Positions 5,235-29,015 are shown, counted from the stretch's first letter. The stretch is 32,000 nucleotides of DNA from Microcystis aeruginosa NIES-2549 (GCF_000981785.2 NZ_CP011304.1:3960001-3992000), one strand, 5' to 3'. Notes: a model not told the origin generated them from the letters alone. Program-made: numbers and translations.

Positions 5235-5290
5235 GAATCAGTTATCAGTTATCAGTTATCAGTAAACAGTTATCAGTGAACTGATAACTG
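5235..5290. repeat. heptamer array in both orientations, forming a hairpin between convergent ctaB and dnaA
   Basis: (GTTATCA)x3, GTAAACA, GTTATCA, then CAGTGAACTGATAACTG. CAGTTATCAG (5267-5276) and CTGATAACTG (5281-5290) form a perfect 10-bp stem with a TGAA loop. Confidence 0.85.
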
Positions 5291-8686: not shown

Positions 8687-8734
8687 CGGTAAACAGTGAA
8701 CTGATAACTGATAACTGATAACTGATAACTGATA

Positions 8735-12307: not shown

Positions 12308-12446
12308 TTTGGCTCTCTTGAGTTTGGTGGGTAAAATGTACTCTAAGATACAGTCCTGCCAGCGAGCGACTAGAACGAACCACAAAGACACAAAGGACAC
12401 AAAGATCGATCCTATATAAGTTAAACTTATCACACAAAGAATAAGA
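12308..12446. repeat. ~140-bp dispersed repeat (MITE-like), copy 1
   Basis: It aligns along its length with 28871-29015. Shared blocks are GGCTCTCTTG.GTTTGGTGGGTAAAATGTA and GAACCACAAAGACACAAAGGACACAAAGATCG....CTATATAAGTTAAACTTATCACACAAAGAATAAGA. Confidence 0.85.
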
Positions 12447-15439: not shown

Positions 15440-15682
15440 GTGCTTCGTGTCACTGAGCTTGTCGAAGTGCTGTTCTAGGCTGCCCTTTGTTTCATCCCGT
15501 CGCTAAAAGCGAGGGCTTCGGCCGTGAGCTTAGCCGAACGGTCTTCACCCCGACATTTGAGATAAATAGTAACAAATATCACAGTCTATTGTTTGATGGA
15601 TATCCCCTCTCTACTCCACAGGGCAGAAAAGGCCCTACTCCCCATCTTTTCGGAAATTGACGCACAGGTCAAGGAAAATCTC
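15440..15682 (+). repeat. left copy of the long direct repeat bracketing the 11.9-kb segment (last 105 bp perfect)
   Basis: 15578-15682 is identical to 27507-27611 (offset 11,929 nt). 15440-15577 is a degenerate match to 27338-27506. Confidence 0.95.
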
Positions 15683-15733
15683 GCTAAAATCTTATTGGGA
15701 AAGTATGGCGAAGCGATTGATTTCCCTAGGTGA
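15596..15733 (+). pseudogene. 5' stub (29 identical codons) of the YnbB-like PLP-enzyme gene found intact at 27525
   Basis: ATG 15596 reads MDIPSLLHRAEKALLPIFSEIDAQVKENL, identical in nucleotides to 27525-27611. It then diverges (AKILLGKYGEAIDFPR) and stops at 15731-15733. Confidence 0.85.
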
Positions 15734-15901: not shown

Positions 15902-17188
15902 ATGACTCTTAACTTACCTAAACAAATAGTTCAGGCTAATCATCCTCATCCCGTGGCGATCGGCGAAATTGTCTCGATAGCGATCGAAGCCCTCTGGAGT
16001 AATAAACTGCGGACTTTGTTAACCATGTTAGGGGTGATTATTGGCATTGCCTCCGTGATTGCTCTCACCTCCGTAGGCCAAGGAGTACAAAAAGCCACCG
16101 AACAAAAAATTCAATCTCTAGGTACTAATGTTTTACAAATTTTACCCGGAGAAGCCAGAACCGGGGGGATTAGTCTCGGCCGCGGTTCCAGTAGTACCTT
16201 AATCTGGGAAGATGCCAAAGTTATTCAAAATCAAGTTCCTGGTGTGCAGGTGGTCTCCGCCTATCTGCAGCGTCCAGCACCAGTGGTGGCGGGCCAGGTC
16301 AATCATGCCACTAATGTGGTGGGAATCGATCTCAACTACATGAAAGCCAGAAATACAGAACTCAGCCAAGGTCGATTTTTTACCGAGGAAGAAATGGCAC
16401 AGGCGACACCAGTGGCGATTTTAGGCTCGACTCTGTTAACAGAACTCTTTGGCGATGATACTAATCCTATCGGCAAAAAGCTTTGGATTGAAAGAAAAAA
16501 TAGTTACGAAATTATTGGGGTATTTGAGCCAAAAGGTGCAGAAGGTTCGATTGATCGCGACGATCAGGTCTTTATTCCTCTGAGCAATATGTCTTCTCGT
16601 CTGGTGGGCAATAATTCTTTAAGTGGTAAGGCCGTTAACGGCATTTATGTCAAAGTTGACCAGCAAGATCAGATGAAAAATGCCGAGTATCAAATTACTA
16701 ATCTTTTGCGTCAGCGTCACAATCTCGCCGCTGCTCAAGCCGATGATTTTAGCATTAGAAACCAAACAGATGTGGTCAAAACCTTGACCACGGTAGTGGG
16801 TTTGTTTACAGTGATGCTGGTGGCTATCGCTGGCATTTCCCTAGTAGTCGGTGGTATTGGCATCGCTAATATCATGTTAGTTTCCGTGGTGGAACGCACC
16901 AGGGAAATCGGGATTCGCAAAGCTGTGGGGGCCACCCGTTCGGCCATCCTCCAGCAGTTTTTAGCGGAATCGGTGATGATTTCCCTGACTGGCGGCGGCA
17001 TCGGTGTATTATCGGGAATTTTAGTCGCCCTCTGTAGCGCCCAGATTTTCCGATTTCCCTTTGTCTTGTCAGGTTGGTCGATAATCAGTGGATTTGGCTT
17101 ATCTTTTATCGTTGGTTTGTTAGCAGGAGTAATTCCCGCCCGTTCTGCCGCTCATTTAGACCCGATTACCGCTTTACGACGGGATTGA
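15902..17188 (+). CDS. ABC transporter permease, MacB/DevC (FtsX-like) family
   Basis: 428-aa ORF with an N-terminal TM, a large periplasmic domain and a C-terminal FtsX-type 3-TM bundle (REIGIRKAVGATRSAILQQFLAES). Confidence 0.9.
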   Translation: MTLNLPKQIVQANHPHPVAIGEIVSIAIEALWSNKLRTLLTMLGVIIGIASVIALTSVGQGVQKATEQKIQSLGTNVLQILPGEARTGGISLGRGSSSTLIWEDAKVIQNQVPGVQVVSAYLQRPAPVVAGQVNHATNVVGIDLNYMKARNTELSQGRFFTEEEMAQATPVAILGSTLLTELFGDDTNPIGKKLWIERKNSYEIIGVFEPKGAEGSIDRDDQVFIPLSNMSSRLVGNNSLSGKAVNGIYVKVDQQDQMKNAEYQITNLLRQRHNLAAAQADDFSIRNQTDVVKTLTTVVGLFTVMLVAIAGISLVVGGIGIANIMLVSVVERTREIGIRKAVGATRSAILQQFLAESVMISLTGGGIGVLSGILVALCSAQIFRFPFVLSGWSIISGFGLSFIVGLLAGVIPARSAAHLDPITALRRD

Positions 17189-17200
17189 GGCCAATACATC

Positions 17201-17863
17201 CTAAAAAACGATTAAGCCATCTTGAAGACGGATCACCCGCCTAGTTTGGGCAGCTACATCAGGATCGTGGGTGACAATCACAATCGTGATCCCCTGTTGA
17301 TTGAGTTCGGTTAGTAAATCCATCAGTTCTTGGGAAGTTTGTGTATCTAAGGCCCCCGTCGGCTCATCGGCCAACACCAGAGCCGGTTGATTAACTAGGG
17401 CCCGGGCGATGGCGACTCGCTGTTGTTGTCCCCCGGAAAGTTGGCTAGGCCGATTGTGGAGATAATTAGTCAACCCAACTCTAGCTAAAGCTTGCATCGC
17501 TCTTTGACGGCGCCTTGGCTTGGGAACATTGGCATAGACCATCGGCAACATGACATTTTCTAGGGCAGTGGAGCGGGACAATAAATTAAATTGTTGGAAG
17601 ACAAAGCCAATCCTCTGATTGCGAATATATGCCAGTTGGTTATCGTCCAAGTTCTTTAAGTTTCTGCCTTCTAAAATATATTGTCCCCCCGTCGGGCGAT
17701 CGAGGCAGCCGATAATATTCATCAGGGTTGATTTCCCGGAACCCGAAGCTCCCATAATGGACACGTATTCCCCTGACTGAATTTCCAGATCTATGCCCCG
17801 AAGAACAGGAATTTTCACTTCCCCTAGAGAGTAAATTTTTGTAATTGTCTGCAAGAAAATCAT
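17201..17863 (-). CDS. ABC transporter ATP-binding protein, MacB/DevA/LolD-like
   Basis: Walker A GASGSGKST, signature LSGGQQQRVAIARAL and Walker B LVLADEPTGALD. ATG 17863 (MIFLQTITKIYSLGEV) is preferred over the upstream Met at 17923. It is convergent with the permease, with 12 nt between the stops. Confidence 0.9.
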   Translation of the reverse strand: MIFLQTITKIYSLGEVKIPVLRGIDLEIQSGEYVSIMGASGSGKSTLMNIIGCLDRPTGGQYILEGRNLKNLDDNQLAYIRNQRIGFVFQQFNLLSRSTALENVMLPMVYANVPKPRRRQRAMQALARVGLTNYLHNRPSQLSGGQQQRVAIARALVNQPALVLADEPTGALDTQTSQELMDLLTELNQQGITIVIVTHDPDVAAQTRRVIRLQDGLIVF

Positions 17864-18144
17864 CGTTTTTACCAGGGGTGATTTAATACCCACATTCCGC
17901 AGGTTGACAAACAAAAAAATCATTAAACCTGAAAGCCTTTCTGTGCAAGGGCTTCATCTAATTTAGTTCACTTGAATTAATCTGTTTCTTGATATTGATA
18001 ATGAATCCTCCTTATTGAGAATTTGTTGAGCAAGGCTTGTACGATATTGCTTTGCGAAAATTATCCCTCTTTTGTCAGTTTAGGAAATTTCCAGGAAATT
18101 AGGCCGTTTCAGCCCAAGATAAATCAAGGTTTGACAAAAGAGGG

Positions 18145-18265
18145 GGGAGCATCTCACCTTTGTAACCCCTAAATCAGGTTTTATGTCAAGCTATTTTGAA
18201 AGCCTTGCTAGAAACCAGTTTTAGGGACAAGTGTAATTACTCACTTGCATAAATAAGATACTCCC
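18145..18265. mobile_element. ~121-bp MITE, copy R1, with 12-bp terminal inverted repeats and an 8-bp target-site duplication
   Basis: TIRs are GGGAGCATCTCA and TAAGATACTCCC (2 mismatches). It is flanked by AAAGAGGG at 18137-18144 and at 18266-18273. It aligns with R2 over its full length. Confidence 0.8.
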
Positions 18266-18438
18266 AAAGAGGGATATTTATGAAGTGGAATCTGAACTGC
18301 GGAATGTTGGATATAATCCAATTATAGTCATTTCAGATAAGTCTGATACACTCTAGACCGACAAAACCCTTATGAACTCTGGGATTGATATTCTCAATCT
18401 TAATTGAAATGACTATATGTACTAAAAACAGGAAATTC

Positions 18439-19092
18439 ATGACAGATATTCACTCGATCATCGGTATATTCCCCTCCAATGAAGAAGCAAACACAGTTGT
18501 ATTGGAGTTACAAAAAAAAGGCTTCGATATCAAAAAACTTTCATTGCTAAAAACCATTGGCACCCCAAACATAGAGGGTGCAGACTTCCACCCACCTCAC
18601 CCGGCAGGAATTCAACCCCCTCACCCAGAGGGGATGCAGCCTCCTTACCACCCAATGGGCATTCAACCCCCTCATCTGGAAGGAGTTCAACCTCCTGTCT
18701 CAGAAAGAGTTGAACCCCTTCATCCGGAAGGGGTTCAACCCCCCTGTACTCATTTCTTGCCCGGAAGATTACCATCTTCAGCAGTTGGCTTGGCCTTAGT
18801 AGGAGCAGAAGCAGCTGGAATACTATTTATTCCAGGCACAGGACCTGTTTTGATTGCCGGACCGATTGCGAGAACACTGGTAAGTTATGTGGAAAAAATG
18901 ATTACTGATGGCCTTGATCCGGCGGCAATCTCAGCAACTGGGGGACTAACAGAGGGATTGGGCATTCCCAAGCATAAAGCACTGCAATACGAGACTGAAA
19001 TCAGAGCAGGCAAATATGTTTTGCTGATATCGGGGAGTGAGGAAGATGTCAGTCAAGCTAAAAATAGCAGTGGAAGCATCTCACCTTTGTAA
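18439..19092 (+). CDS. stress-protein-like (YflT/DUF1269-like) glycine-zipper membrane protein with a Pro-rich octapeptide-repeat insert
   Basis: ATG 18439 is preceded by AGGA. The N-terminal domain (IIGIFPSNEEANTVVLELQKKGFDIKKLSLL) and C-terminal domain (IRAGKYVLLISGSEEDVSQAK) flank a Gly-rich hydrophobic segment. The last 7 codons and the stop come from MITE R2. The family call rests on recalled domain architecture, not a search. Confidence 0.65.
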   Translation: MTDIHSIIGIFPSNEEANTVVLELQKKGFDIKKLSLLKTIGTPNIEGADFHPPHPAGIQPPHPEGMQPPYHPMGIQPPHLEGVQPPVSERVEPLHPEGVQPPCTHFLPGRLPSSAVGLALVGAEAAGILFIPGTGPVLIAGPIARTLVSYVEKMITDGLDPAAISATGGLTEGLGIPKHKALQYETEIRAGKYVLLISGSEEDVSQAKNSSGSISPL

Positions 19093-19193
19093 CCCCTAAA
19101 TCAGGTTTTTATGTCAATCTATTTTGAAAGCCTTGCTAGAAAACAGTTTTAGGGATAAATATAATTACTCACCTGCATGAATGAGATGCTCCC
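19072..19193. mobile_element. ~122-bp MITE, copy R2
   Basis: TIRs are GGAAGCATCTCA and TGAGATGCTCCC. Flanks are AATAGCAG(T) at 19063-19071 and AATAGCAG at 19194-19201. The interior is near-identical to R1 (CCTTTGTAACCCCTAAATCAGGTTTT.ATGTCAA.CTATTTTGAAAGCCTTGCTAGAAA.CAGTTTTAGGGA). Confidence 0.8.
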
Positions 19194-19299
19194 AATAGCA
19201 GAATAGCAGTCTTACTTCGCCTAAAGGGAGCATACCATTTTCGTAAAATTATTACCAATAGTAAGGCAATAGAAAGGGTTTCAGTTCCCCTGAGAATGG

Positions 19300-19395
19300 C
19301 TAACGTGCCAAATTGGGATGCTCCCCGCCTAAAAGATAAATTTTTGTAATCGTCTGCCAGAAAATCATCGTTTTTACCACGGGTGTTTTGGGATA
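19300..19395 (-). pseudogene. duplicated 5' UTR plus first ~22 codons of the DevA-like ATPase gene
   Basis: TAAATTTTTGTAATCGTCTGCCAGAAAATCATCGTTTTTACCACGGGTG matches 17832-17880 with 3 mismatches in 49 nt. It reads MIFWQTITKIYLLGGEHPNLAR* against the intact MIFLQTITKIYSLGEVKIPVLRG. Confidence 0.75.
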
Positions 19396-19713
19396 ATTTT
19401 GTCCTAGAAATTAGGTTAAGCACTGGAATGTCAAAAATGGCACTATGTTAACAAATATAAAGTAAATTTTTTCAGTGCTGTTTGACTATCAACTGCTATT
19501 TTTATCGGTAAGTTCCAACTATGTCCACATTTAAAGATGAATGTATCCAACTTTGTCCACTTTCTGGGAGTTATCTCAACTAGACACTTGATTAAAACTC
19601 TTTTTTTGCTCAAGAGAGGAAATTATTAAGAAATAAAAAATATCTGGAATCACTGGCAAATAGTGAGAATAAAATAAAAAAACTAAATAGTAAATATACG
19701 GAGAAATCAATCA

Positions 19714-20043
19714 ATGTTAACACCAAGACATCCTCACCCCCCCGCTGCCCCGCAAAGCCCTCCTCCTGGTGTGCCTCAAAGTCCTCCTCCCGGAGCGCAT
19801 CAAGGGTTTCCACCTGGTGGACACCAGAACAATCCTCCGGGGACACCGCAGCCCTTTGCACCGACTGGGGCAGGACCGGCCAATCTACCGCGTCTAACAG
19901 AACAAGATCAAGAACTCTTAAAACAATTACTCGGTAATGATGAACAGGCTCAAGCTTTAGGGGGAATGTTACAAAACTCACCGCCAGAAATTGCCGCTTT
20001 GGGTTATTTAATCTTACGAGTCTTTGAACGTAGTCAGTCCTAA
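19714..20043 (+). CDS. small hypothetical protein: Pro-rich N-terminal half, helical C-terminal half
   Basis: 109-aa ORF with GGAGA about 10 nt upstream of the ATG. The C-terminal half (NLPRLTEQDQELLKQLLGNDEQAQALGGMLQNSPPEIAALGYLILRVF) looks like a folded helical domain. A longer antisense ORF exists, but it is explained by the stop-free complement of Pro codons. Confidence 0.5.
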   Translation: MLTPRHPHPPAAPQSPPPGVPQSPPPGAHQGFPPGGHQNNPPGTPQPFAPTGAGPANLPRLTEQDQELLKQLLGNDEQAQALGGMLQNSPPEIAALGYLILRVFERSQS

Positions 20044-20051
20044 TTGGTCTG

Positions 20052-20126
20052 GTTCTTCGGTTGCTTGTCTGCTTACCAAAGAGCAGAAATGTCATAGTTG
20101 CCGAAGAACTTTTATACCGTTTTTTT
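20052..20126 (+). terminator. possible terminator after the small Pro-rich ORF
   Basis: GTTCTTCGG (20052-20060) pairs with CCGAAGAAC (20101-20109), with an inner CTGCT/AGCAG stem. It is followed by TTTTATACCGTTTTTTT. The loop is long, so this is weak. Confidence 0.35.
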
Positions 20127-20367
20127 GAGATACAACAATTTTGGCAATTCCTAATTTTTCCCTGATCACATAGTTATTTCCCTCTATAAGCCCTGGGAAT
20201 TTACCTTTAGCACCTCTCAAAAAAACATTTTTAGATTCCATCCTACTCGGTCAATCCCTATCTACACAACCCCAGAGACTTAAGAGAGCGTTATCTTGAT
20301 TTTCCCCGCCAGCTTAGGTCAGGATTCTGCCAGAGAAAATATAGTCAAACGAGGATAAAAATTTACC

Positions 20368-21981
20368 ATGAACTCAGAACAAAAAATCAATACTCCCCAA
20401 AACGTCCCAGCACCAACACCATTTCCTAATCAGTCAGGAGTGATGCCCTCATTGCCGCCCACAGATGCCGGCCGGGGGGCGCCTCATAATCAAGGTGGAG
20501 TGAGTCCCTTCATGCCGCCCCCCTTGCCAGGAGATATCGAACCACCGCCCCATCCCCCCGACGGTACACCGTTGCCGAATGTCTGGATTTATGAAGGAGA
20601 AGCCTATGATCTCACGGAATTTATTGCCAAGCATCCGGGGGGACAATTTTTTATTGGACGTACCAAGAACAGAGATATAACCACGATTGTCAATATCTTT
20701 CATCCCAATCCTGAAAGAGTCAAAAAAGTCCTGCAAAAATATTCCCTTGGACAACAGGGAAGACCAGAGCATATTCATCCTAAATACAACGCTCCTGCCT
20801 TCTTATTTAAAGAGCATTTTAATGGTTGGCGGGATACTCCTCGCTATGATTTCCGCAACCCAGAACAATTGCTTAATAAGATTAAAGCCAGAGTTTACTC
20901 TCCAGAATTTAAACAGAAAGTGGAGCGCATGGATTTTCTGTTTAATGTTATCAGTATCTGTCTTTTTCTTATCTATTTTGTGGTGCAAGGGCTGTACTTA
21001 GAGGCCAGACAGTATATGCCGATTTACCTATTTGTGCCTCTCATCGCTATGCTAAGAATCGCCCTAGCAGGGGTAGGTCACTACCTAATTCATCGGCCAC
21101 AAGTGGGATTAAACAAGGTATTTGCCAATATTTTTGATATTAACTACGTTCCCCTCGCTTTAGTAGTAACAGACGGTCATACTTTACTGCATCATCCCTT
21201 TACCCAAACCGATGTTGATATCAAAAAGAATGTTTTCACCTTCATGTTAGAATTGCCTCGTTTTTATCGAGTTCCAGTACATACATTCCATAAAATAGGC
21301 CATGTGGTTACGGGAATGTTTGTTCGCATTATGGAATTATGTATCCTCGCTTTTAAAGCAGGTGTTAAGAATATGTATGGCAGTTGGCAGCTGGGATTAC
21401 CCCATTTTTTAGGTAGTTTTGGTATTCACTTATTACTATTAATCGAACTGGTTATCTTTTGTCTATACGGCCAATTTTGGGCTTGGTTAGCGCAGTTTTT
21501 CCTTACCCTCTGGATTAGCACTTTTATGATTGTGGCTAGTCATGATTTTGAAGCCGAAGAACCGCCAATAGATCCTATGGCACCACCTCAATGGGAAACC
21601 CAAGATTGGGCGGTTATGCAGATTAAAAATTCCTACGATTTGACTATGGTAGGTAATAAGTATATTGACTGTTTTCTCTCGGCGGGCTTGGCTCCCCACC
21701 GGGTGCATCACGTTCTTCCCCAACAAAAAAGTGGTTTTGCCAATATCATCAGTGAAGATATTGTCCGGGAAGAATCGGAAAAATTCGGAGTTGAATGGGC
21801 GGCACCTCAAAACTTCTTTTTTGACCGCCTACCAGGGCTAATTAAACACTATCTAGCTGTGCCATCCCGATTAGCCAAAGAGAAGGAGTTGGGATTATTG
21901 AAAGAACATTTTCACCCGCAAGCCTTAAGAACAACCCTAGACTATATTGTCAAAGGTTGGGCTGGTATTGGTTCAATTTGA
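20368..21981 (+). CDS. cytochrome b5-fused membrane fatty-acid desaturase/hydroxylase family protein with a Pro-rich N-terminal extension
   Basis: 537-aa ORF. The b5 heme-binding motif is EFIAKHPGGQFFIG, with a second His in NIFHPN. His boxes are GHYLIH (HxxxH), HTLLHH (HxxHH) and HRVHH (HxxHH), separated by TM segments. Confidence 0.85.
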   Translation: MNSEQKINTPQNVPAPTPFPNQSGVMPSLPPTDAGRGAPHNQGGVSPFMPPPLPGDIEPPPHPPDGTPLPNVWIYEGEAYDLTEFIAKHPGGQFFIGRTKNRDITTIVNIFHPNPERVKKVLQKYSLGQQGRPEHIHPKYNAPAFLFKEHFNGWRDTPRYDFRNPEQLLNKIKARVYSPEFKQKVERMDFLFNVISICLFLIYFVVQGLYLEARQYMPIYLFVPLIAMLRIALAGVGHYLIHRPQVGLNKVFANIFDINYVPLALVVTDGHTLLHHPFTQTDVDIKKNVFTFMLELPRFYRVPVHTFHKIGHVVTGMFVRIMELCILAFKAGVKNMYGSWQLGLPHFLGSFGIHLLLLIELVIFCLYGQFWAWLAQFFLTLWISTFMIVASHDFEAEEPPIDPMAPPQWETQDWAVMQIKNSYDLTMVGNKYIDCFLSAGLAPHRVHHVLPQQKSGFANIISEDIVREESEKFGVEWAAPQNFFFDRLPGLIKHYLAVPSRLAKEKELGLLKEHFHPQALRTTLDYIVKGWAGIGSI

Positions 21982-22134
21982 GCCAACAAAAACCAGAAAT
22001 TCTGTCGGAAAGTTTCGGGAAAATTATTGGGCATCTTACGGATATAATAAAGACCCAGACTTTTCCCTAGCTTTCCAGGCAATTGGTTGACAGAAACCCT
22101 CCCTATAATACCTAAACTGGTTCTGATATTTGCC

Positions 22135-23322
22135 ATGCAATCTTCTCAGTTTTTACCTGTCATTGAAAGTCTCGCCACTGGCACTCCGGGCAATCTTGTC
22201 CAACAAACGGATGCCGCTAAATTTTTAGCTAACCTCAAAGGTCTAGAGAAGAATCAACATCGTATCGAAAAAATCTACGAACATACCCGGATTGACACTA
22301 GGCATCTAGCTATTAACTTATTAACTGAAGAAACTGTTAACTTTAGTCGAGAAGAGGGAACTATTGAACAACGAATGCAAATGTACGAAAAATATGGGCT
22401 TCCCCTAGCAGAAGATGTGGCGAGAAGAGTTATTTTAGCCGCATCGGAGCAACAGAAAAAGCATAATCCTTTGAGTACAGAAAAGATCGAGGATTCTATT
22501 GGTCTAATCGTATTCGTCACCAGTACAGGCTTTGTTGCCCCGGGTATAGATGCTCAATTAATTAAAAGTTTAGGACTTCGACGCAACATTGCTAGAGTGC
22601 CAGTTAATTTTATGGGTTGTGCAGCCGCAATGAATGGTTTACGAGTAGCCTGTGATCATGTAAGAGCCAACCCTGAGCATAAAGCTTTAGTAATTTGTTT
22701 AGAATTAAGTTCTATTAATGCCGTTTTTCAAGATGATTTAAATGACATTATCATTCATAGTATTTTTGGTGATGGTTGTGCGGCAGTAGTAATCGGAGCC
22801 TACGAACCAGAACAAATACAAGGTCGAGGAAAATTTATCATTCGGGATAATTTTAGTTATCTGGCTGAAAATACCGAAGACGGGATTACCTTAGGCATTA
22901 GAGACAATGGTATTACCTGTCTGCTGTCCCGTCAATTACCTGATTATATTGAGTCTGGTGTCGGTCGAATTATTACTAATTTTCTGAATAGTCATGAGAT
23001 AACCAAGGAAGATATTGATTTATGGATGGTTCACCCTGGAGGGACAAAAATTATTGAAAAAGTGCAACTTTCCCTAGATTTAAATGATGAACAAGTGGCC
23101 GATAGTTGGGGAGTTCTCCGTCAATACGGCAACCTACTTAGTTGTGCGATTTTATTTGTAATGGAACGCATGATCTTAAGATTAGAACAAGGATGTGAGA
23201 CGCAAGCTCTTAAACAAAATAACAGCGGAGTTACTCGTCAAAACGCCGCATCTTTGACAGGTTTGGCCTTCTCTTTTGCCCCAGGAGTTGGTATTGAAGG
23301 AATTCTCCTAGAAAAGATTTAA
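22135..23322 (+). CDS. type III polyketide synthase (chalcone/stilbene synthase superfamily)
   Basis: Cys-His-Asn triad in type III PKS contexts: NFMGCAAAMNGL, WMVHPGGTKII (HPGG is typical of type III PKS, not FabH) and YGNLLSCAILFVM, plus IFGDGCAAVVIG. ATG 22135 (MQSSQFLPVIESLATGTP) is preferred over TTG 22087. Confidence 0.88.
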   Translation: MQSSQFLPVIESLATGTPGNLVQQTDAAKFLANLKGLEKNQHRIEKIYEHTRIDTRHLAINLLTEETVNFSREEGTIEQRMQMYEKYGLPLAEDVARRVILAASEQQKKHNPLSTEKIEDSIGLIVFVTSTGFVAPGIDAQLIKSLGLRRNIARVPVNFMGCAAAMNGLRVACDHVRANPEHKALVICLELSSINAVFQDDLNDIIIHSIFGDGCAAVVIGAYEPEQIQGRGKFIIRDNFSYLAENTEDGITLGIRDNGITCLLSRQLPDYIESGVGRIITNFLNSHEITKEDIDLWMVHPGGTKIIEKVQLSLDLNDEQVADSWGVLRQYGNLLSCAILFVMERMILRLEQGCETQALKQNNSGVTRQNAASLTGLAFSFAPGVGIEGILLEKI

Positions 23323-23365
23323 CCCCACCCTTGAAAATCTATCACCGGACAGGAGGACAAAATTA

Positions 23366-25291
23366 ATGGAATTTTTGAGATTTTTGCTGGCCATATCCTG
23401 GAAACATATCACTATTGCTATCGTAGCAGGTTTAGTTAGCGGTGTTGGCAACGCTCTTTTAATTTCTTTGATTAATCGAGAAGTCCATGAGGGTCATGCG
23501 GTCAATGCTCTACAATACTTTAGTATCTTGGCCATATTTATTATAGTGACCAGCATGATCTCGCAATTTATGCTGATTTTTCTCTCGCAGAATGCTATCT
23601 ATGAACTGCGAGTGAAATTGAGTAAAAATATTTTGTCCTCTCCTTTAGAACATCTAGAGAGACTGAAAGAAAATCGTCTTTTGGTTAGTTTTACCGATGA
23701 TGTTCATACCCTAACTCATGCAGTGGCATCCGTGCCGAATATCTGTGTGGATTTTGCTACAGTTGTCGGCTGTTTCGTTTACTTTGCTTGGCTATCTAAT
23801 GCCCTTTTCGTCTTAACGATAGCTTCTACTGTTAGTGCCATCTGGTTTGTGCAAACGATCCTGAATAAAGCCGAACGTTTATTTTTTAAGTCGAGGGAAG
23901 AAGAAGACACCCTATTTAAGGATTTTAAAGCCTTGATGAGCGGCATCAAAGAACTCAAGCTCAATCAGTCCAAAAGGCAGGCTTTTATGGAGAAGGAATT
24001 GCAGAGTAGTGCTGTACGGCTTCGGCAACTAAATACCAAAGCGATGAAAAGATTTGCGATCGCTAACGGGTTTGGACAACTATCTCAGTTTCTCAGTTTG
24101 GGATTTATTCTGTTCATTCTACCTTTGTTTTTAGACATTCCTTTAACGATGTTGGCCGCCTATGTTTTAATTGGTACTTTCATCGCCTTGCCAATGCAGA
24201 ATATGCTCAATCGCATTCCTGAATTAGTCCGGGGAAATATTGCCCTGCGAAAAATTGAAAGGATGAAATTATCTCTCTCCAGTCTCTCGGAAGCAGATAC
24301 CCTAGTTTTATCCATCAGTCCCTCCTGTCAACTACAATTTCAAGCTGTCACCTATCTCTATCACCCAGAATTACCACCTTTCCCCCCCGAAGGTTCTCCC
24401 GAAGGCCATCCACCTTTCCCCCCCGAAGGTTCTCCCGAAGGCCATCCACCTTTCCCCCCCGAAGGTTCTCCCGAAGGCCATCCACCTTTCCCCCCCGAAG
24501 GTTCTCCCGAAGGCCATCCACCCTTTCCTCATAATGGTCTTTCTCAAGGTTTTGCCAATAGTTTACCAGCACTAGCACCAGAATCCCCCTCCTCCGAGAA
24601 GAAACCAATTCCCTTTCCATCCCATCCCCCCTATTCTCAAAAAGGCAACCCACCACCACCGCCAAGGACAGATGAAAAAGGATTTCTGCTCGGACCAATT
24701 AGCTTTTCTTGGCAACCAGGGGAACTGATCTTTATTATTGGCGGCAATGGCAGCGGCAAGTCAACTTTAGCTAAACTAATTACAGGACTATACCCACCCC
24801 TATCGGGAGCAATTTACCTCAATGGTAAACGTATTACCCAAGATAATGTGGAGTGGTATCGTCAACATTTCTCGGCAATTTTCTATGATTTTTACTTATT
24901 CGATAGTTTTCTCGGTTTTGATCGCCCCAATCTCGATCAAGAGGTAGAAAATTATCTGATGCAACTGCAATTAGCCCATAAAGTCACGGTCAAAAATGGA
25001 GTTTTATCCACCACAGAACTATCTCAAGGACAAAGGAAACGACTGGCTTTATTAACAGCCTATTTAGAGGATCGTCCTATCTATGTGTTTGATGAATGGG
25101 CCGCCGACCAAGAACCCCGTTTTAGGGAACTATTCTATAAACAGATACTGCTACAACTGAAAGAAAGAGGAAAAATAGTTATTGTTATTAGCCATGATGA
25201 GCGCTATTTTCATCTAGCCGATCATATTATTAAGCTCGATTATGGTGCTGTGGAATCGGAACAGACTGTTCAACAATCAGGTTCTCTCTAA
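23366..25291 (+). CDS. ABC exporter of the SyrD/PvdE-like 'cyclic peptide transporter' type, with a ~95-aa Pro-rich insert between TMD and NBD
   Basis: AGGAGG lies 8 nt upstream of the ATG. The 6-TM N-terminal half starts MEFLRFLLAISWKHITIAIVAGLVSG. The NBD has Walker A GGNGSGKST, signature LSQGQRKRLALL and Walker B IYVFDEWAADQEP. Confidence 0.88.
   Translation: MEFLRFLLAISWKHITIAIVAGLVSGVGNALLISLINREVHEGHAVNALQYFSILAIFIIVTSMISQFMLIFLSQNAIYELRVKLSKNILSSPLEHLERLKENRLLVSFTDDVHTLTHAVASVPNICVDFATVVGCFVYFAWLSNALFVLTIASTVSAIWFVQTILNKAERLFFKSREEEDTLFKDFKALMSGIKELKLNQSKRQAFMEKELQSSAVRLRQLNTKAMKRFAIANGFGQLSQFLSLGFILFILPLFLDIPLTMLAAYVLIGTFIALPMQNMLNRIPELVRGNIALRKIERMKLSLSSLSEADTLVLSISPSCQLQFQAVTYLYHPELPPFPPEGSPEGHPPFPPEGSPEGHPPFPPEGSPEGHPPFPPEGSPEGHPPFPHNGLSQGFANSLPALAPESPSSEKKPIPFPSHPPYSQKGNPPPPPRTDEKGFLLGPISFSWQPGELIFIIGGNGSGKSTLAKLITGLYPPLSGAIYLNGKRITQDNVEWYRQHFSAIFYDFYLFDSFLGFDRPNLDQEVENYLMQLQLAHKVTVKNGVLSTTELSQGQRKRLALLTAYLEDRPIYVFDEWAADQEPRFRELFYKQILLQLKERGKIVIVISHDERYFHLADHIIKLDYGAVESEQTVQQSGSL
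24374..24517 (+). repeat. four perfect 36-bp tandem repeats (plus a degenerate fifth at 24518-24540) inside the ABC exporter CDS
   Basis: The unit CCACCTTTCCCCCCCGAAGGTTCTCCCGAAGGCCAT occurs at 24374, 24410, 24446 and 24482. It encodes (PPFPPEGSPEGH)x4 in frame. Confidence 0.97.
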
Positions 25292-25317
25292 ATTAACCCA
25301 CCAGTTTCTTACTCACT

Positions 25318-26877
25318 ATGTCAGATAGTTCCTCCTTCCAAAAACTTAACAAACAGCCCGCAATTAGCTGGGCATTGGGATTACTAGCTTTATTTTTAGC
25401 CATTGGTGGTATTGTTCTCGCCTATCGTCAGTTTGGGCATACCCCCCACCGGGATAGTTCCCGTCCGCTGCCTGTAGCCGTGGAACAGACGGATTTAACG
25501 ATCATCGTTTCCGCTAATGGCACTGTGGAACCGGAAAAAGTGGTTAATGTTAGCCCTAAAACAGCAGGAATTTTGAAGGAACTGCTAGTAGATGAGGGTT
25601 ATACTGTCAAAAAAGGACAGATAATTGCTAAAATGGACGATTCTGATTGGCAGGGTCAATTATTAGAATCCCAGGGCAAACTAGCGGCAGCCCAAGCTAA
25701 TCTCCGCAAACTAATCGCCGGTAATCGTCCCCAAGAAATCGCTCAGGCCCAAGCGAAACTGGAACAACTAGAAGCCAACCTACAAAAGCTGATGGCCGGT
25801 AATCGTTCTCAGGAAATTGCCCAAGAAAAAGCTCGTTTAGAAGGTTTAAAAGCCATTTTCCAAAAATCTGATGATGAATATCGTCGCAATCAGCTACTTT
25901 TCAACGAAGGAGCCATATCTCAACAGACTTTAAACGAAAAACTGGCAACTAGGGATAGCGCCCAGGCTGCCGTGATTGAATCCCAAGAAAAGCTATCTCT
26001 CCTTAAAGAAGGAACTCGCTCGGAAGAAATTGCTCAAGCAAAGGCGGAAGTGAGAAATCAACAACAGGTCTTAGACCTTCTCCAAGCAGGAACAAGACAG
26101 GAGGAAATCGATCAAGCACGGGCGGAGGTGACTACTGCTCAGGGTTCTCTACAAAATGTCAAAACTCAGATTGAGGATACCATCATCAAAGCACCCTTTG
26201 ACGGGGTGGTTACTTTTGTCTACGCTGAACCGGGGGCCTTTGTCGCTCCTACTACGACCGGCAGTTCCGTATCTTCGGCCACTTCTTCCTCGATTTTATC
26301 CCTGGTTTCACAAAATGAAGTGGTCAGCAATGTAGCAGAAAAAAACATTGATAAGATCCGGGTTGGGCAAAAGGTGACGATTACAGCCGATGCTTATCCC
26401 GATAAAATCTTCCATGGACGAGTCTCTCTGATTGCCACCCAGGCAACGGTAGAACAAAATGTCACCAGTTTTGAAGTGAAAGTGACCCTAGAAGAAAAGG
26501 CGGCCAGGGAATTAAAGGCGGGAATGAATGTTTCTACCGATTTCCAAGTCGGCCAACTGAAAAACGCTTTAACCGTGCCAACTATTGCCGTTACCCGTCA
26601 GAACGAGCAAACTGGTGTTTTTGTTGGCGCACCTAACCAACCACCCCGATTTGTCCCCATTACCACTGGCGTTACTATCGGCAATCGTACCGAAGTTAAA
26701 AGCGGACTCGATGGCTCCGAACATATCTTAATTAATCCACCCTCGGACACCCGACCAAGGCAAGGTTTTTCTTGGCAAAGTCTCTTTGGTGGTGGGGGGA
26801 ACGAACCTGCTGCCGGTGGCCCTCCCCCCGGGGCCCCACCACAGGGAGCCTCACCCCCCCCAAGTGGGCCGCTCTAA
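25318..26877 (+). CDS. HlyD/DevB-family periplasmic adaptor (membrane fusion protein) with a Gly/Pro-rich C-terminal tail
   Basis: Signal-anchor TM (ISWALGLLALFLAIGGIVLAY), a lipoyl-like domain, a long coiled coil with four G(N/T)RxxEIxQAxA repeats, and a beta-barrel. It starts 26 nt after the ABC exporter stop. Confidence 0.9.
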   Translation: MSDSSSFQKLNKQPAISWALGLLALFLAIGGIVLAYRQFGHTPHRDSSRPLPVAVEQTDLTIIVSANGTVEPEKVVNVSPKTAGILKELLVDEGYTVKKGQIIAKMDDSDWQGQLLESQGKLAAAQANLRKLIAGNRPQEIAQAQAKLEQLEANLQKLMAGNRSQEIAQEKARLEGLKAIFQKSDDEYRRNQLLFNEGAISQQTLNEKLATRDSAQAAVIESQEKLSLLKEGTRSEEIAQAKAEVRNQQQVLDLLQAGTRQEEIDQARAEVTTAQGSLQNVKTQIEDTIIKAPFDGVVTFVYAEPGAFVAPTTTGSSVSSATSSSILSLVSQNEVVSNVAEKNIDKIRVGQKVTITADAYPDKIFHGRVSLIATQATVEQNVTSFEVKVTLEEKAARELKAGMNVSTDFQVGQLKNALTVPTIAVTRQNEQTGVFVGAPNQPPRFVPITTGVTIGNRTEVKSGLDGSEHILINPPSDTRPRQGFSWQSLFGGGGNEPAAGGPPPGAPPQGASPPPSGPL

Positions 26878-27337: not shown

Positions 27338-27611
27338 GTGCTTCGTGTCACTGAGCCTTGACATTGAGCCTGTCGAAATGTGTCGAAATGTGTCGAAATG
27401 TGGACACTGAGCCTGTCGAAGTGCTGTTCTATATTGGTCGGCTTTTCATCTCCGAGGTAAAACCGAGGGTTTCTCCAAGCCGACATTTAAGGTAAATGCA
27501 ATACAGATCACAGTCTATTGTTTGATGGATATCCCCTCTCTACTCCACAGGGCAGAAAAGGCCCTACTCCCCATCTTTTCGGAAATTGACGCACAGGTCA
27601 AGGAAAATCTC
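27338..27611 (+). repeat. right copy of the long direct repeat (last 105 bp perfect); contains the promoter region and 5' end of the intact PLP-enzyme gene
   Basis: See the left copy at 15440-15682. This copy also carries (TGTCGAAATG)x3 at 27371-27400, which is absent from the left copy. Confidence 0.95.
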
Positions 27612-28748
27612 CGTCAAGTCCTCGCTGCTTTCCGTGCAAACCGCGTCGGGGTGCATCATTTTGCTAGTGTTAGCGGTTATGGTCATGATGACTTGGGACG
27701 GGATACTTTAGATCAAGTGTTCGCCCAAGCCCTGGGGGCCGAAAAGGCAGCGGTGCGAGTACAATTTGTTTCAGGAACCCATGCGATCGCCTGTGCCTTG
27801 TATGGGGTTCTTCGACCGGGGGATGAGATGTTAGCGGTAGCGGGTGCGCCCTACGATACCCTAGAGGAAGTAATCGGGATTAGGGGCAGTGGTCAAGGCT
27901 CTTTAAAAGATTTTGGCGTTAGTTATCGGCAATTAGAGCTAGATTCTACTGGTGCGATCGATTGGTTGTCCTTGGCAACGGCAGTGAAACCCCAAACCCG
28001 TTTAGTACATATTCAAAGATCCTGCGGTTATTCCTGGCGATCGAGTTTGTCTATTGACGAAATCGAGAGAATTGTCCGTATAGTTAAACAACAAAACCCG
28101 AATACGGTCTGTTTTGTCGATAATTGCTATGGGGAATTTATCAACACCCAAGAACCCACCGATGTGGGGGCAGATCTGATGGCCGGTTCTCTAATTAAAA
28201 ACCCCGGAGGTACAATTGTCACGGCTGGGGGATACATAGCAGGTAAAGCGGAATTAGTGGAAATGGCCTGCTATCGTCTGACAGCACCTGGAATCGGTAG
28301 CGAGGGAGGGGCAACTTTTGACCAAAATCGTCTTCTTTATCAGGGATTGTTTCTAGCGCCGCAAATGGTGGGAGAAGCGATGAAAGGCAGTCATTTAATT
28401 GCCTATGTGGGCGATAAGTTGGGTTATCCGGTCAATCCTGCTCCTTTTGTGCCTCGACGCGATATTATTCAAGCGATTAAACTCGGTTCCCCCGATAAGC
28501 TGATCGCCTTCTGTAAAGCCATTCAAGCCTATTCTCCCATCGGTTCCTACTTGGATCCCATTCCTGCCCAAATGCCGGGCTATGAGAGCCAAGTAGTGAT
28601 GGCTGGTGGCACTTTTATCGATGGCAGCACCTCGGAATTCTCCGCCGATGGACCCCTACGGGAACCCTATATCGTTTTTTGTCAGGGGGGAACCCATTGG
28701 ACTCATATTTCCCTGGCCCTAGAACAAGCGATCGCCGCTTTATCTTAA
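27525..28748 (+). CDS. YnbB-like / 'aluminium resistance' family PLP-dependent enzyme (Met gamma-lyase-like fold)
   Basis: 407-aa ORF with the family-typical N-terminus (VHHFASVSGYGHDDLGRDTLDQVFA), VSGTHAI and the PLP-Lys context GSLIKNPGG. ATG 27525 is preferred over TTG 27522. Confidence 0.85.
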   Translation: MDIPSLLHRAEKALLPIFSEIDAQVKENLRQVLAAFRANRVGVHHFASVSGYGHDDLGRDTLDQVFAQALGAEKAAVRVQFVSGTHAIACALYGVLRPGDEMLAVAGAPYDTLEEVIGIRGSGQGSLKDFGVSYRQLELDSTGAIDWLSLATAVKPQTRLVHIQRSCGYSWRSSLSIDEIERIVRIVKQQNPNTVCFVDNCYGEFINTQEPTDVGADLMAGSLIKNPGGTIVTAGGYIAGKAELVEMACYRLTAPGIGSEGGATFDQNRLLYQGLFLAPQMVGEAMKGSHLIAYVGDKLGYPVNPAPFVPRRDIIQAIKLGSPDKLIAFCKAIQAYSPIGSYLDPIPAQMPGYESQVVMAGGTFIDGSTSEFSADGPLREPYIVFCQGGTHWTHISLALEQAIAALS

Positions 28749-28870: not shown

Positions 28871-29015
28871 TTTAGGCTCTCTTGGGTTTGGTGGGTAAAA
28901 TGTATTCTTGAGATATAATTCTGCTGGCGAGCGAGTGGCACGAACCACAAAGACACAAAGGACACAAAGATCGGTCGCTCCTATATAAGTTAAACTTATC
29001 ACACAAAGAATAAGA
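28871..29015. repeat. ~140-bp dispersed repeat (MITE-like), copy 2
   Basis: It aligns with 12308-12446 in the same orientation. Confidence 0.85.

Follow-up and report, generated by a model that had tools for sequence, protein, structure and literature searches.

Proline-rich modules in five proteins of one type III polyketide synthase and cytochrome b5 cassette of Microcystis aeruginosa

Introduction

Cyanobacteria harbor orphan gene clusters that combine a type III polyketide synthase (PKS) with a cytochrome b5, and a 32,000-nucleotide (nt) stretch of Microcystis aeruginosa NIES-2549 (NZ_CP011304.1:3960001-3992000; hereafter, the window) holds such a cluster, five proteins of which bear the proline-rich modules described here. 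In the passages of Larsen, Pearson & Neilan (2021, PMC8086630) on these clusters, the b5 gene lies directly upstream of the PKS gene and is followed by ABC (ATP-binding cassette) and membrane-fusion-type transporters, Microcystis is named among the carriers, the product is given as unknown, and a mycobacterial counterpart, the Mycobacterium tuberculosis pks18 cluster, is pointed out. A 2026 review still describes the products of Microcystis type III PKSs as uncharacterised. With its PKS domains, adjacent b5, and ABC and membrane-fusion/resistance-nodulation-division (RND)-type transporters, the cluster in the window is a member of this family, which was hence already known. The modules, in turn, are undescribed in the literature searched. 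PMC8086630 nowhere uses the word 'proline', and its passages on these clusters mention neither proteins like P235 and small109 (see below) nor actinobacterial orthologues beyond pks18. Literature searches on cyanobacterial His-Pro repeats, on 'HPPHP' and on Pro-rich insertions in nucleotide-binding domains (NBDs) returned nothing relevant, with subscription journals lying outside the search.

Individual elements of the cluster recall other described systems. As in CFTR, the NBD of the ABC exporter contains a long, probably disordered loop between strands beta1 and beta2 beside the A-loop aromatic, which we take to be the very site of the regulatory insertion in CFTR NBD1. In CFTR, phosphorylation controls an insertion of ~30 residues that is not rich in Pro or His, and the two are not homologous. 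The insertion here is built of HPxG/PPxP repeats, is variable in length and is echoed in other proteins of the operon. TonB likewise carries a Pro-rich, probably extended segment in an envelope-associated protein, but its spacer is periplasmic, follows an (EP)n-(KP)n pattern and links a transmembrane (TM) anchor to TonB_C, whereas the repeat unit here is a different one. Tandem Gly/His/Pro repeats with fixed His spacing are also found in histidine-rich glycoprotein (GHHPH/GHPPH) and in the prion octarepeat, a resemblance in composition and order, not homology; those proteins are eukaryotic and secreted or exposed at the cell surface, and the Microcystis copies are lower in His density. Similarly, disordered Pro- and His-rich repeats occur in the phenolic-binding salivary proline-rich proteins and histatins, but these are secreted animal proteins, whereas the modules described here are embedded in enzymes and transporters. 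Finally, an HlyD-type adaptor combined with a MacB-type permease and ATPase resembles MacAB-TolC and DevBCA-HgdD, with the differences that the adaptor missed the DevB cut-off (104.3 vs 129) and extends into a P/G-rich tail beyond its MacA-aligned region.

Results

Five neighboring genes encode Pro-rich modules

A sequence-only reading of the window had reported low-complexity Pro-rich stretches in five proteins encoded between positions 18439 and 26877. All five stretches proved to be in frame and located within long open reading frames (ORFs) that have homologues. The genes of this interval lie on the + strand in the order P235, small109, b5 enzyme, type III PKS, ABC exporter and HlyD, with the following features (aa, amino acids):

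P235, 18439-19092, + strand: 217 aa from the ATG at 18439
P235 module, nt 18568-18747 (aa 44-103), + strand: 17 Pro and 6 His in 60 aa
small109, 19714-20043, + strand: 109 aa, a cluster-specific, real small protein
small109 module, nt 19714-19890 (aa 1-59), + strand: 21 Pro and 4 His in 59 aa
b5 enzyme, 20368-21981, + strand: fusion of cytochrome b5 and a membrane domain that resembles di-iron oxygenases and has three His boxes
b5 module, nt 20392-20586 (aa 9-73), + strand: 21 Pro in 65 aa
Type III PKS, 22087-23322, + strand: Chal_sti_synt_N (PF00195, 4.7e-24) and Chal_sti_synt_C (PF02797, 5.8e-22); no module
ABC exporter, 23366-25291, + strand: full length with transmembrane domain (TMD) and NBD, 'cyclic peptide export' subfamily
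ABC module, nt 24359-24685 (aa 332-440), + strand: 37 Pro in 109 aa, P/G/H/E-rich
HlyD, 25318-26877, + strand: HlyD/MacA-type periplasmic adaptor with one N-terminal TM segment (aa 16-34)
HlyD tail, nt 26779-26874 (aa 488-519), + strand: GGGGNEPAAGGPPPGAPPQGASPPPSGPL, with 10 Pro, 9 Gly and no His in 32 aa

The maximal Pro count per 30-aa window was 10-14 in the five proteins, as compared with 2-5 in each of the 19 remaining ORFs with a length of 100 aa or more, among them the PKS with 4. This agrees with the further claim that the housekeeping proteins elsewhere in the window have no comparable stretch. With 24 genes, five of them marked, the chance that all five fall within six consecutive genes is 96/42504 = 0.0023. 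HP units are present in four of the five modules, but not in the HlyD tail. The sub-motifs originally proposed to be shared by all five, HP(E/A)G, PPPG(V/A)P(P)Q and PEG, do reflect a common unit, which is better written as (G)HPxG / PPHP, but the HlyD tail shares only their PPPG flavor and lacks His.

Two simple origins were considered and rejected. Modules of different genes showed only chance-level nucleotide matches of 14-18 nt and are therefore not recent DNA copies of each other, which leaves room for ancient events only. Descent from high-GC ancestors is insufficient on its own to explain the richness in Pro and Gly, as the GC content of the cluster (0.40-0.46) equals that of the rest of the window and the His enrichment is not GC-driven.

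Each of the five modules contains 5-14 consecutive-Pro positions, and the motifs PPP, PPG, PPE and PPD are known to cause strong stalling that depends on elongation factor P (EF-P), for instance in CadC of E. coli. The modules could thus act as a translational throttle that stalls ribosomes unless EF-P is active and co-regulates the pathway at the level of translation. We consider this highly improbable: one or two PP motifs would be enough for the purpose, rendering arrays of 60-140 residues with conserved His context needless, the PKS and the MacB subunits of the cluster are free of such motifs, and the stand-alone repeat proteins described below would go unexplained.

The ABC module is an insertion within the ATPase domain

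The module of the ABC exporter had been taken for a linker. It does not, however, connect TMD and NBD, but interrupts the NBD itself, between YLYHPE (beta1, with the A-loop Tyr) and EKGFLLGPISF (beta2). The alignment to the solved ABCB1 structure resumes at LLGPISF, which corresponds to the ILKGLNL position in strand beta2, and the two stretches matched by TIGR01194 (423.7 bits vs a cut-off of 286.2) flank the insert. Together, the ABCB1 match and the split TIGR01194 match place the module in the beta1-beta2 hairpin of the cytoplasmic ATPase domain, right after the A-loop Tyr; its composition indicates that it is probably disordered. A 36-bp unit is repeated 4.3 times within the module (24374-24528, 99% matches), with one His per 12 residues and three copies being 100% identical. 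Three Microcystis genomes differ in the number of these repeats, yielding inserts of 87, 107 and 115 aa. Since the units are identical and their copy number varies between strains, this repeat must be very young.

The insertion site, in contrast, is common to a much wider set of exporters. Among at least 60 orthologues, the anchors on both sides of the variable stretch (...VTYLYHPE before and ...EKGFLLGPISF after it) were conserved, and the distance between them was 16 residues in eight loci, which thus lack an insert, and 39-158 residues in the rest. Inserts outside the cyanobacteria were found in 35 actinobacterial loci (Nocardia and one Antrihabitans) and in one Acidobacteriaceae metagenome-assembled genome (MAG). 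Cyanobacterial and non-cyanobacterial inserts were alike in composition, with about 25-29% Pro, 14-24% Gly and 8-9% His. In a neighbor-joining tree of the PKS, calculated without support values, the outgroups (Nocardia and Acidobacteria) had long inserts and insert-less forms were scattered over at least three lineages, so that an old insertion lost several times is the simplest reading.

Modules are enriched in the cluster and behave in concert

Dozens of cyanobacterial genomes have the genes of b5 enzyme, PKS and ABC exporter in this order, usually with those of HlyD, MacB permease and MacB ATPase behind them, and the b5-PKS-ABC core is also present in Nocardia (~50% identity) and an Acidobacteriaceae MAG. 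We evaluated module frequency in 43 syntenic cyanobacterial loci using crude ORF calls and counting a protein as Pro-rich if it contained at least 9 Pro in 30 aa. As controls for proteome frequency, we used the flanking ORFs of these loci (n=391) along with the best 150 relatives of the P235 core. Pro-rich proteins were distributed as follows:

b5 enzyme: 19/42
ABC exporter: 14/33
HlyD adaptor: 14/18
Type III PKS: 0/43
MacB permease: 0/13
MacB ATPase: 0/15
Flanking ORFs: 9/391 (2.3%)

Orthologues of the three module-bearing proteins were hence Pro-rich in 42-78% of cases, as compared with 2.3% of flanking ORFs, and PPHP-type tetrapeptides occurred 0.65-0.87 times per 1000 aa in b5 and ABC proteins vs 0.07 times in flanking ORFs. 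Measured against this control, modules are far rarer outside the cluster, and orthologues in other genomes carry them as well: various modules throughout the cyanobacteria and, in the case of the ABC insert, also in Nocardia and the Acidobacteriaceae MAG.

The sequence-only reading had further raised the question of whether insert lengths co-vary, and they do. In 30 cyanobacterial loci in which both proteins were complete, the length of the ABC insert correlated with the Pro count in the 45 aa preceding the b5 domain (Spearman rho 0.58, p 9e-4; like the following two comparisons, this one was not phylogenetically corrected). In the same line, an adjacent HlyD gene was present in 18 of the 22 clusters with an ABC insert, but in none of the eight without (p 8e-5), and accessory module proteins were encoded in 12/22 vs 0/8 clusters, respectively (p 0.01). 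Absence of the inserts from orthologous clusters without functional consequence had been named as a refutation, and such absence was seen in part: 8 of 30 have no ABC insert and, along with it, neither the other modules nor an adjacent HlyD, whereas the remaining 22 carry it.

Beyond composition, the order of residues was conserved. Relative to shuffled sequences, the HP dipeptide was over-represented in ABC inserts (z = 9.1 cyanobacterial, 10.5 non-cyanobacterial), as were Gly before His (z = 6.0 and 4.4) and HPxG (z = 5.1 and 11.6, and 15.2 in accessory proteins), although tandem repetition and closely related sequences inflate these scores. What counts beyond the z-scores is that the HPxG unit recurs in independent repeat families, as HPGG and HPGA in the ABC inserts of Nocardia and as HPEG in those of Chamaesiphon. 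A metagenome scan for DNA encoding HPPHP-xx-HPPHP returned at least 120 stretches. The matches listed were all C-rich simple-sequence DNA or eukaryote-like low-complexity ORFs and none of them adjoins cluster genes, and the pattern is too permissive to inform on specificity.

Spaced imidazoles on a polyproline-II-like backbone could bind Zn, Ni, Cu, Fe or haem, and the repeats might accordingly buffer or deliver a cofactor for the b5/di-iron enzyme or turn the exporter ATPase into a metal- or pH-responsive domain. The GHHPH repeats of histidine-rich glycoprotein and the prion PHGGGWGQ octarepeat bind metals or haem, and HPGG is the haem-ligand motif of cytochrome b5, whose domain in this cluster has an invariant KHPGGQ. 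The strong over-representation of HPxG and the 8-9% His of the ABC inserts, nearly always in a G-H-P context, are in agreement with such a role, as are the 7-8-residue repeats with two His each in modules of the S2 (see below) and P235 type and the His/Cys-rich YHYH-domain protein added in Chamaesiphon clusters. Still, we regard metal or haem binding as doubtful, as His density is low (one per 12 residues in the Microcystis ABC unit and 4/59 in small109), the Microcystis HlyD tail has no His at all, and no metal-handling genes are conserved in the cluster. Moreover, a Pro following His should block coordination by the backbone amide and leave binding to the imidazoles alone.

Modules relocate within the P235 family and make up stand-alone proteins

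P235 belongs to a large family whose alpha/beta domain consists of two parts on either side of an IPGxGPxxxAG segment. Its module comprises about six 8-residue units of the form H-P-x-G-(I/M/V)-Q-P-P with a 24-nt period, including the HP-type units HPAG, HPEG and HPMG; the small109 module shares this kind of older 24-nt periodicity. The P235 units are only 63-73% identical in DNA, and their conserved H, P, G and Q are encoded by differing codons. As the motif stayed constant while the codons diverged, the repeat is old, which indicates selection at the peptide level. In the structural model, residues 42-124, which include the module, had a predicted local distance difference test score (pLDDT) <50, as compared with about 75-80 for the core. 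A hydrophobic stretch was modelled as a beta-hairpin rather than a TM helix, and the match to YflT (PF11181) behind the former label 'stress-type membrane protein' is non-significant (E = 0.19; 12.7 bits vs a cut-off of 26.2).

In Microcystis P235, the ~60-residue module is internal and follows the N-terminal domain. In the nearest relatives outside Microcystis, P0028 and P0029, this internal site is empty and HPPHPxG repeats are located at the C-terminus instead; one of the two, from Phormidium tenue FACHB-886, is encoded 8 kb from that organism's copy of the cluster. The P235 core has 369 representative relatives, and among the best 150 only the three closest contain PPHP-type motifs.

The P235 gene itself lies between direct repeats of ~130 nt and ~90% identity (18136-18267 vs 19063-19195), the right copy of which encodes the final ~10 P235 codons. 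Downstream of the gene, 62 nt from the 5' end of the MacB ATPase gene recur as a second copy (17823-17884 vs 19328-19389). The arrangement of these repeats is compatible with repeat-mediated recombination, which may have inserted P235 or truncated its C-terminus. The relatives bear their His-Pro repeats C-terminally.

The small109 family comprises 22 protein clusters with a common layout, in which an M(L/H)TPRHPHPP start is followed by a variable repeat of P, H, G and Q and then by a three-helix domain at the C-terminus. Of 21 invariant columns in 17 aligned sequences, all except the initiator Met fall into the C-terminal half. Again, the model is split: the N-terminal blocks reached a pLDDT of 44-60, with most of residues 24-55 below 50, and the helices (63-108) one of ~90. 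Between Microcystis genomes, the N-terminus varies while the C-terminal domain is identical. In 3/3 further genomic contexts, the small109 gene precedes the b5 gene or follows the MacB ATPase gene within the same PKS-ABC-HlyD-MacB cluster.

Other genera encode additional proteins with related sequences, including units of the types HPPG, HPAG and HPGG in stand-alone proteins. The S2 proteins (loci L016, L023 and L009) start with a conserved MQDPxEF peptide, common to different orders, and are otherwise almost entirely repeat, with up to 13 or more HPPHPxG units. A single capped homologue search with the S2 protein of L016 produced 2983 word candidates, none of which scored under composition correction. 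S3 proteins have two AAQKLGVTEAKLxxAL repeats with PPPRPD between them and PPHPPG at the end. Their genes lie immediately behind the MacB ATPase gene in Iningainema, Stigonema and an unclassified cyanobacterial MAG, all three of them filamentous. Chamaesiphon clusters encode a YHYH-domain protein at the position of the MacB permease; the copy in L004 (PF14240 match, 3.9e-18) has a clearly Pro-rich C-terminal tail. Coordinates of the latter two groups within their loci are:

S3 lipoprotein-like family, with signal peptide and Cys: L008 17296-17676; L016 14028-14420 (- strand); L028 16927-17259
Chamaesiphon YHYH-domain protein, His/Cys-rich: L003 15075-16160; L004 11035-12126

Relaxed Pfam/NCBIfam scans assigned no significant family to P235, small109, S2, S3 or S4 proteins, and a fold search of the small109 and P235 models against the PDB returned nothing below E = 0.9.

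These data bear on a deflationary explanation, according to which the modules are loosely constrained, disordered spacers without common function: harmless, C-rich slippage repeats, perhaps spread between neighbors by ancient template switching, whose specificity would be only apparent, with inheritance and transfer acting on the cassette as a whole. The length polymorphism among Microcystis genomes, the identity of the ABC repeat units, the small109 N-terminus varying beside an identical C-terminal domain, the eight insert-less ABC orthologues and the ease with which simple-sequence DNA generates PPHP strings would all be expected under this explanation, and the occurrence of a direct-repeat-bounded cassette in distant phyla is consistent with its transfer as a unit. 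It does not account, however, for the P/G/H make-up and GHP/HPxG order retained in cyanobacteria, Nocardia and the acidobacterium, and bacterial genomes have a general deletion bias, against which the insert was retained. Nor does drift in composition explain the His content, as His is not favored by GC-rich codons. Likewise at odds with neutrality are the P235 units that keep their peptide motif despite divergent codons, the relocation of the module within this one family, stand-alone proteins that are almost all repeat yet conserve an N-terminal peptide across orders, and the joint absence of modules from the eight insert-less clusters. We therefore see neutral spacers as a possible, though improbable, explanation.

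At least three modules probably face the cytoplasm

The b5 enzyme matches Cyt-b5 (PF00173, 1.3e-10) at residues 73-129. Its haem-ligand residues H89 and H112 and its His boxes, which follow the pattern HX3-4H, HX2-3HH and HX2-3HH of the membrane desaturase/hydroxylase superfamily (H238x3H242, H271x3H275H276 and H444x2H447H448), were invariant in 73 orthologues, which makes 'b5-fused desaturase/hydroxylase-like' a fair label, while Pfam FA_desaturase yielded no match even at E <= 1. The b5 module ends in the conserved EPPPHPPDGTPLPNVW immediately before the b5 domain, N-terminal to the soluble b5 region and 115 residues ahead of the first TM segment (residue 188); the N-termini of orthologues are Pro-rich, variable and often repetitive. 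By likeness to b5-fused desaturases, the module is probably cytoplasmic. Along with the ABC insert and small109, for which neither a TM segment nor a signal peptide was predicted, this would place at least three of the five modules in the cytoplasm.

HlyD, in turn, exceeded the cut-off of TIGR01730 (RND_mfp; 159.9 vs 94.9), but not that of TIGR02971 (DevB). Since its sole TM segment is at residues 16-34, the C-terminal tail should be periplasmic. The tail lies outside the region aligned to the solved MacA structure, in which the alignment stops at query residue 473. A tail of this type was present in 14/18 HlyD orthologues, while 3/4 unrelated HlyD paralogues at the loci compared lacked it. 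Of the HlyD orthologues, only that of L008 has a PPHP motif in its cytoplasmic N-terminal tail, so that this feature is not general. The P/G tail of HlyD, which contains no His, is probably an element of its own on the periplasmic side.

The sequence-only reading had suggested that the modules form TonB-like, rigid spacers across the periplasm or peptidoglycan, to which the Pro-rich, periplasmic stretches of the HlyD tail and the S3 proteins would lend themselves. For three of the five modules at least, this suggestion finds no support: that of the ABC exporter lies within a cytoplasmic NBD, the b5 module precedes a soluble N-terminal domain, and small109 is without membrane anchor or export signal. 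The only periplasmic module of the five, the HlyD tail, lacks the His motif, comprises only ~30 residues and is situated at the membrane-proximal end of the adaptor. None of the five proteins matches TonB_C. We find rigid spacers of this kind barely credible.

Type III PKSs typically make phenolic or pyrone polyketides, and Pro/His-rich segments might serve as a product 'sponge' that binds a phenolic polyketide and passes it from the enzyme to the ABC exporter and on to the adaptor, or that protects the cell. This is the sole specific function considered that would cover modules on both sides of the membrane and the whole route of synthesis and export. However, small alkylresorcinol or pyrone head groups bind Pro-rich proteins weakly as compared with tannins, and we rate such a role as very unlikely. 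Polyphenols are indeed bound by salivary proline-rich proteins and histatins (PMC7548203, PMC9328874).

The module genes share a repeat-bounded cassette

A direct repeat of ~240 nt, with one copy on each side, brackets the genes from the MacB permease to HlyD, placing all five Pro-rich proteins in one 11.9-kb cassette that encodes eight or nine proteins. Its remaining features are:

Left bounding direct repeat, 15451-15691, + strand: holds a truncated second copy of the first 30 codons of a pyridoxal phosphate (PLP)-dependent enzyme gene and of the region upstream of it
MacB-type ABC permease, 15902-17188, + strand: MacB_PCD (4.5e-46) and FtsX (2.1e-20); at most 3 Pro per 30 aa, no module
MacB-type ABC ATPase, 17201-17923, - strand: ABC_tran (6.7e-35); at most 3 Pro per 30 aa, no module
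Right bounding direct repeat, 27405-27620, + strand: overlaps the start of the intact PLP-enzyme gene (27522-28748)

Within the bounding repeats, 15571-15691 and 27500-27620 are 94% identical over 121 nt, the final ~110 nt being identical, and an ORF at 15593-15733 begins with MMDIPSLLHRAEKALLPIFSEIDAQVKENL, which matches the gene start at 27522. This suggests that the cassette was inserted, or rearranged, at the 5' end of the PLP-dependent enzyme gene. The PKS is 97-98% identical to loci in two Microcystis genomes, and the b5 ORF ends 105 nt upstream of it.

The closest NCBIfam matches of the MacB ATPase are of the MacB, LolD and DevA types. The presence of both pumps suggests a two-step export, in which the ABC exporter would cross the inner membrane and a MacAB-like pump would continue outward. 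In other cyanobacteria, the MacB permease gene directly follows HlyD, and in most of them HlyD, permease and ATPase genes are collinear downstream of the ABC exporter. In Microcystis, permease (+) and ATPase (-) genes are convergent and located upstream of the PKS genes (15902-17923), which indicates a rearrangement with inversion.

Several clusters outside Microcystis contain further genes. A conserved protein of 70-92 aa (..ICxKMTQIQxxLExxLxKIFEQAGS...KxxYGC), which the Microcystis window lacks and for which Pfam gave no match, is encoded between ABC exporter and HlyD or after the PKS (L081 3083-3295, L084 3088-3363, L008 13056-13334 and ~15 other loci); some of the carrier clusters are insert-less. 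Two metagenomic clusters have a second, truncated HlyD-like gene (230-263 aa, C-terminal half) before the full-length one (L081 3429-4121, L084 3404-4195), and one of these copies has a Pro-rich end containing EGHPPGG. In one metagenomic cluster (L083 13557-13976), a 2Fe-2S ferredoxin gene (PF00111) lies directly 3' of the ABC exporter; its product is a possible electron donor for the b5/di-iron enzyme.

The window also contains short repeats outside the cassette genes. A perfect 10-bp tandem repeat, TGTCGAAATG x3.2, immediately precedes the right bounding repeat (27371-27402). Intergenic arrays of the heptamer AACTGAT/ATCAGTT, with 5-9 copies and in both orientations, are located at 137-225, 5237-5277 and 8699-8734. 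Finally, a dispersed repeat of ~100 nt and 86-98% identity, bearing a short CACAAAGA array, is present in two intergenic copies 16.6 kb apart (12346-12446 and 28911-29015).

Discussion

The Pro-rich segments of this Microcystis cluster are best described as disordered, slippage-prone tandem-repeat modules on a (G)H-P-x-G / PPHP unit, a hallmark of one biosynthesis-export cassette. Their retention across phyla, the conserved order of the motif, its relocation, the stand-alone proteins and the joint absence of modules from insert-less clusters favor function over neutrality, and we consider the modules to be probably functional. In the scenario we favor, the oldest and most widespread copy would be the insertion of about 30-140 residues in the beta1-beta2 hairpin of the ABC exporter NBD, after the A-loop Tyr. 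In cyanobacteria, kindred modules would then have appeared, grown, changed place and disappeared in a concerted manner in further cassette proteins, namely at the N-terminus of the b5 enzyme, in small109 and in P235, and in other genera as stand-alone repeat proteins.

The existence, enrichment, position within the proteins, predicted disorder, cross-phyla conservation, co-variation and relocation of the modules have been shown here, whereas any binding, and its target, is inferred. The modules may represent multivalent arrays of short linear motifs, by which the cytoplasmic, membrane-proximal members would bind one common partner or each other, thereby keeping synthesis beside the exporter. 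Mutual docking, which the sequence-only reading had offered as its second option, gains indirect support from the concerted presence and absence of modules and from their relocation within the P235 family. We assign a probability of roughly 35% to multivalent motif arrays that gather the cytoplasmic members around the exporter.

Several observations weigh against this assembly around the exporter. Confidence is modest mainly because Pro-rich or PPHP stretches also occur in the periplasm, namely in the HlyD tail, the S3 lipoproteins and the Chamaesiphon YHYH protein, which fits cytoplasmic docking poorly. Eight orthologous clusters do without the ABC insert, so that it must be dispensable for basic transport, and completely identical units with strain-variable copy number, as in the Microcystis ABC module, are typical of loosely constrained regions. 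In addition, HPPHP..HPPHP strings arise readily from C-rich simple-sequence DNA, as seen in the metagenome scan, and the co-variation statistics and shuffle z-scores are subject to the shared ancestry and repetition noted above.

A bolder idea, which we think rather unlikely, is that HPxG/PPHP arrays are a transferable, pathway-specific 'address tag' that was grafted repeatedly onto proteins handling the b5/type III PKS product, and that works either by binding one ligand common to them (metal, haem or the phenolic product) or by driving co-assembly into a membrane-bound complex of synthesis and export. If this were true, a bacterial biosynthetic gene cluster would be marked by a common intrinsically disordered motif, and the ABC insertion would be a ligand-responsive regulatory loop beside the ATP site.

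One disordered motif common to an enzyme, an exporter and accessory proteins of the same cluster is unusual in any case. Should the modules be neutral spacers after all, they would document the concerted gain and loss of low-complexity sequence within one operon. The motif allows the recognition of cluster members without homology, and small109, P235, S2 and S3 were found in this way. The ABC inserts, with inter-anchor lengths from 16 to 158 residues among orthologues, amount to a natural deletion series for the function of an NBD insertion. As the cluster family is widespread in cyanobacteria, the shared motif provides a handle on its partners and on the binding of metal, haem and product.

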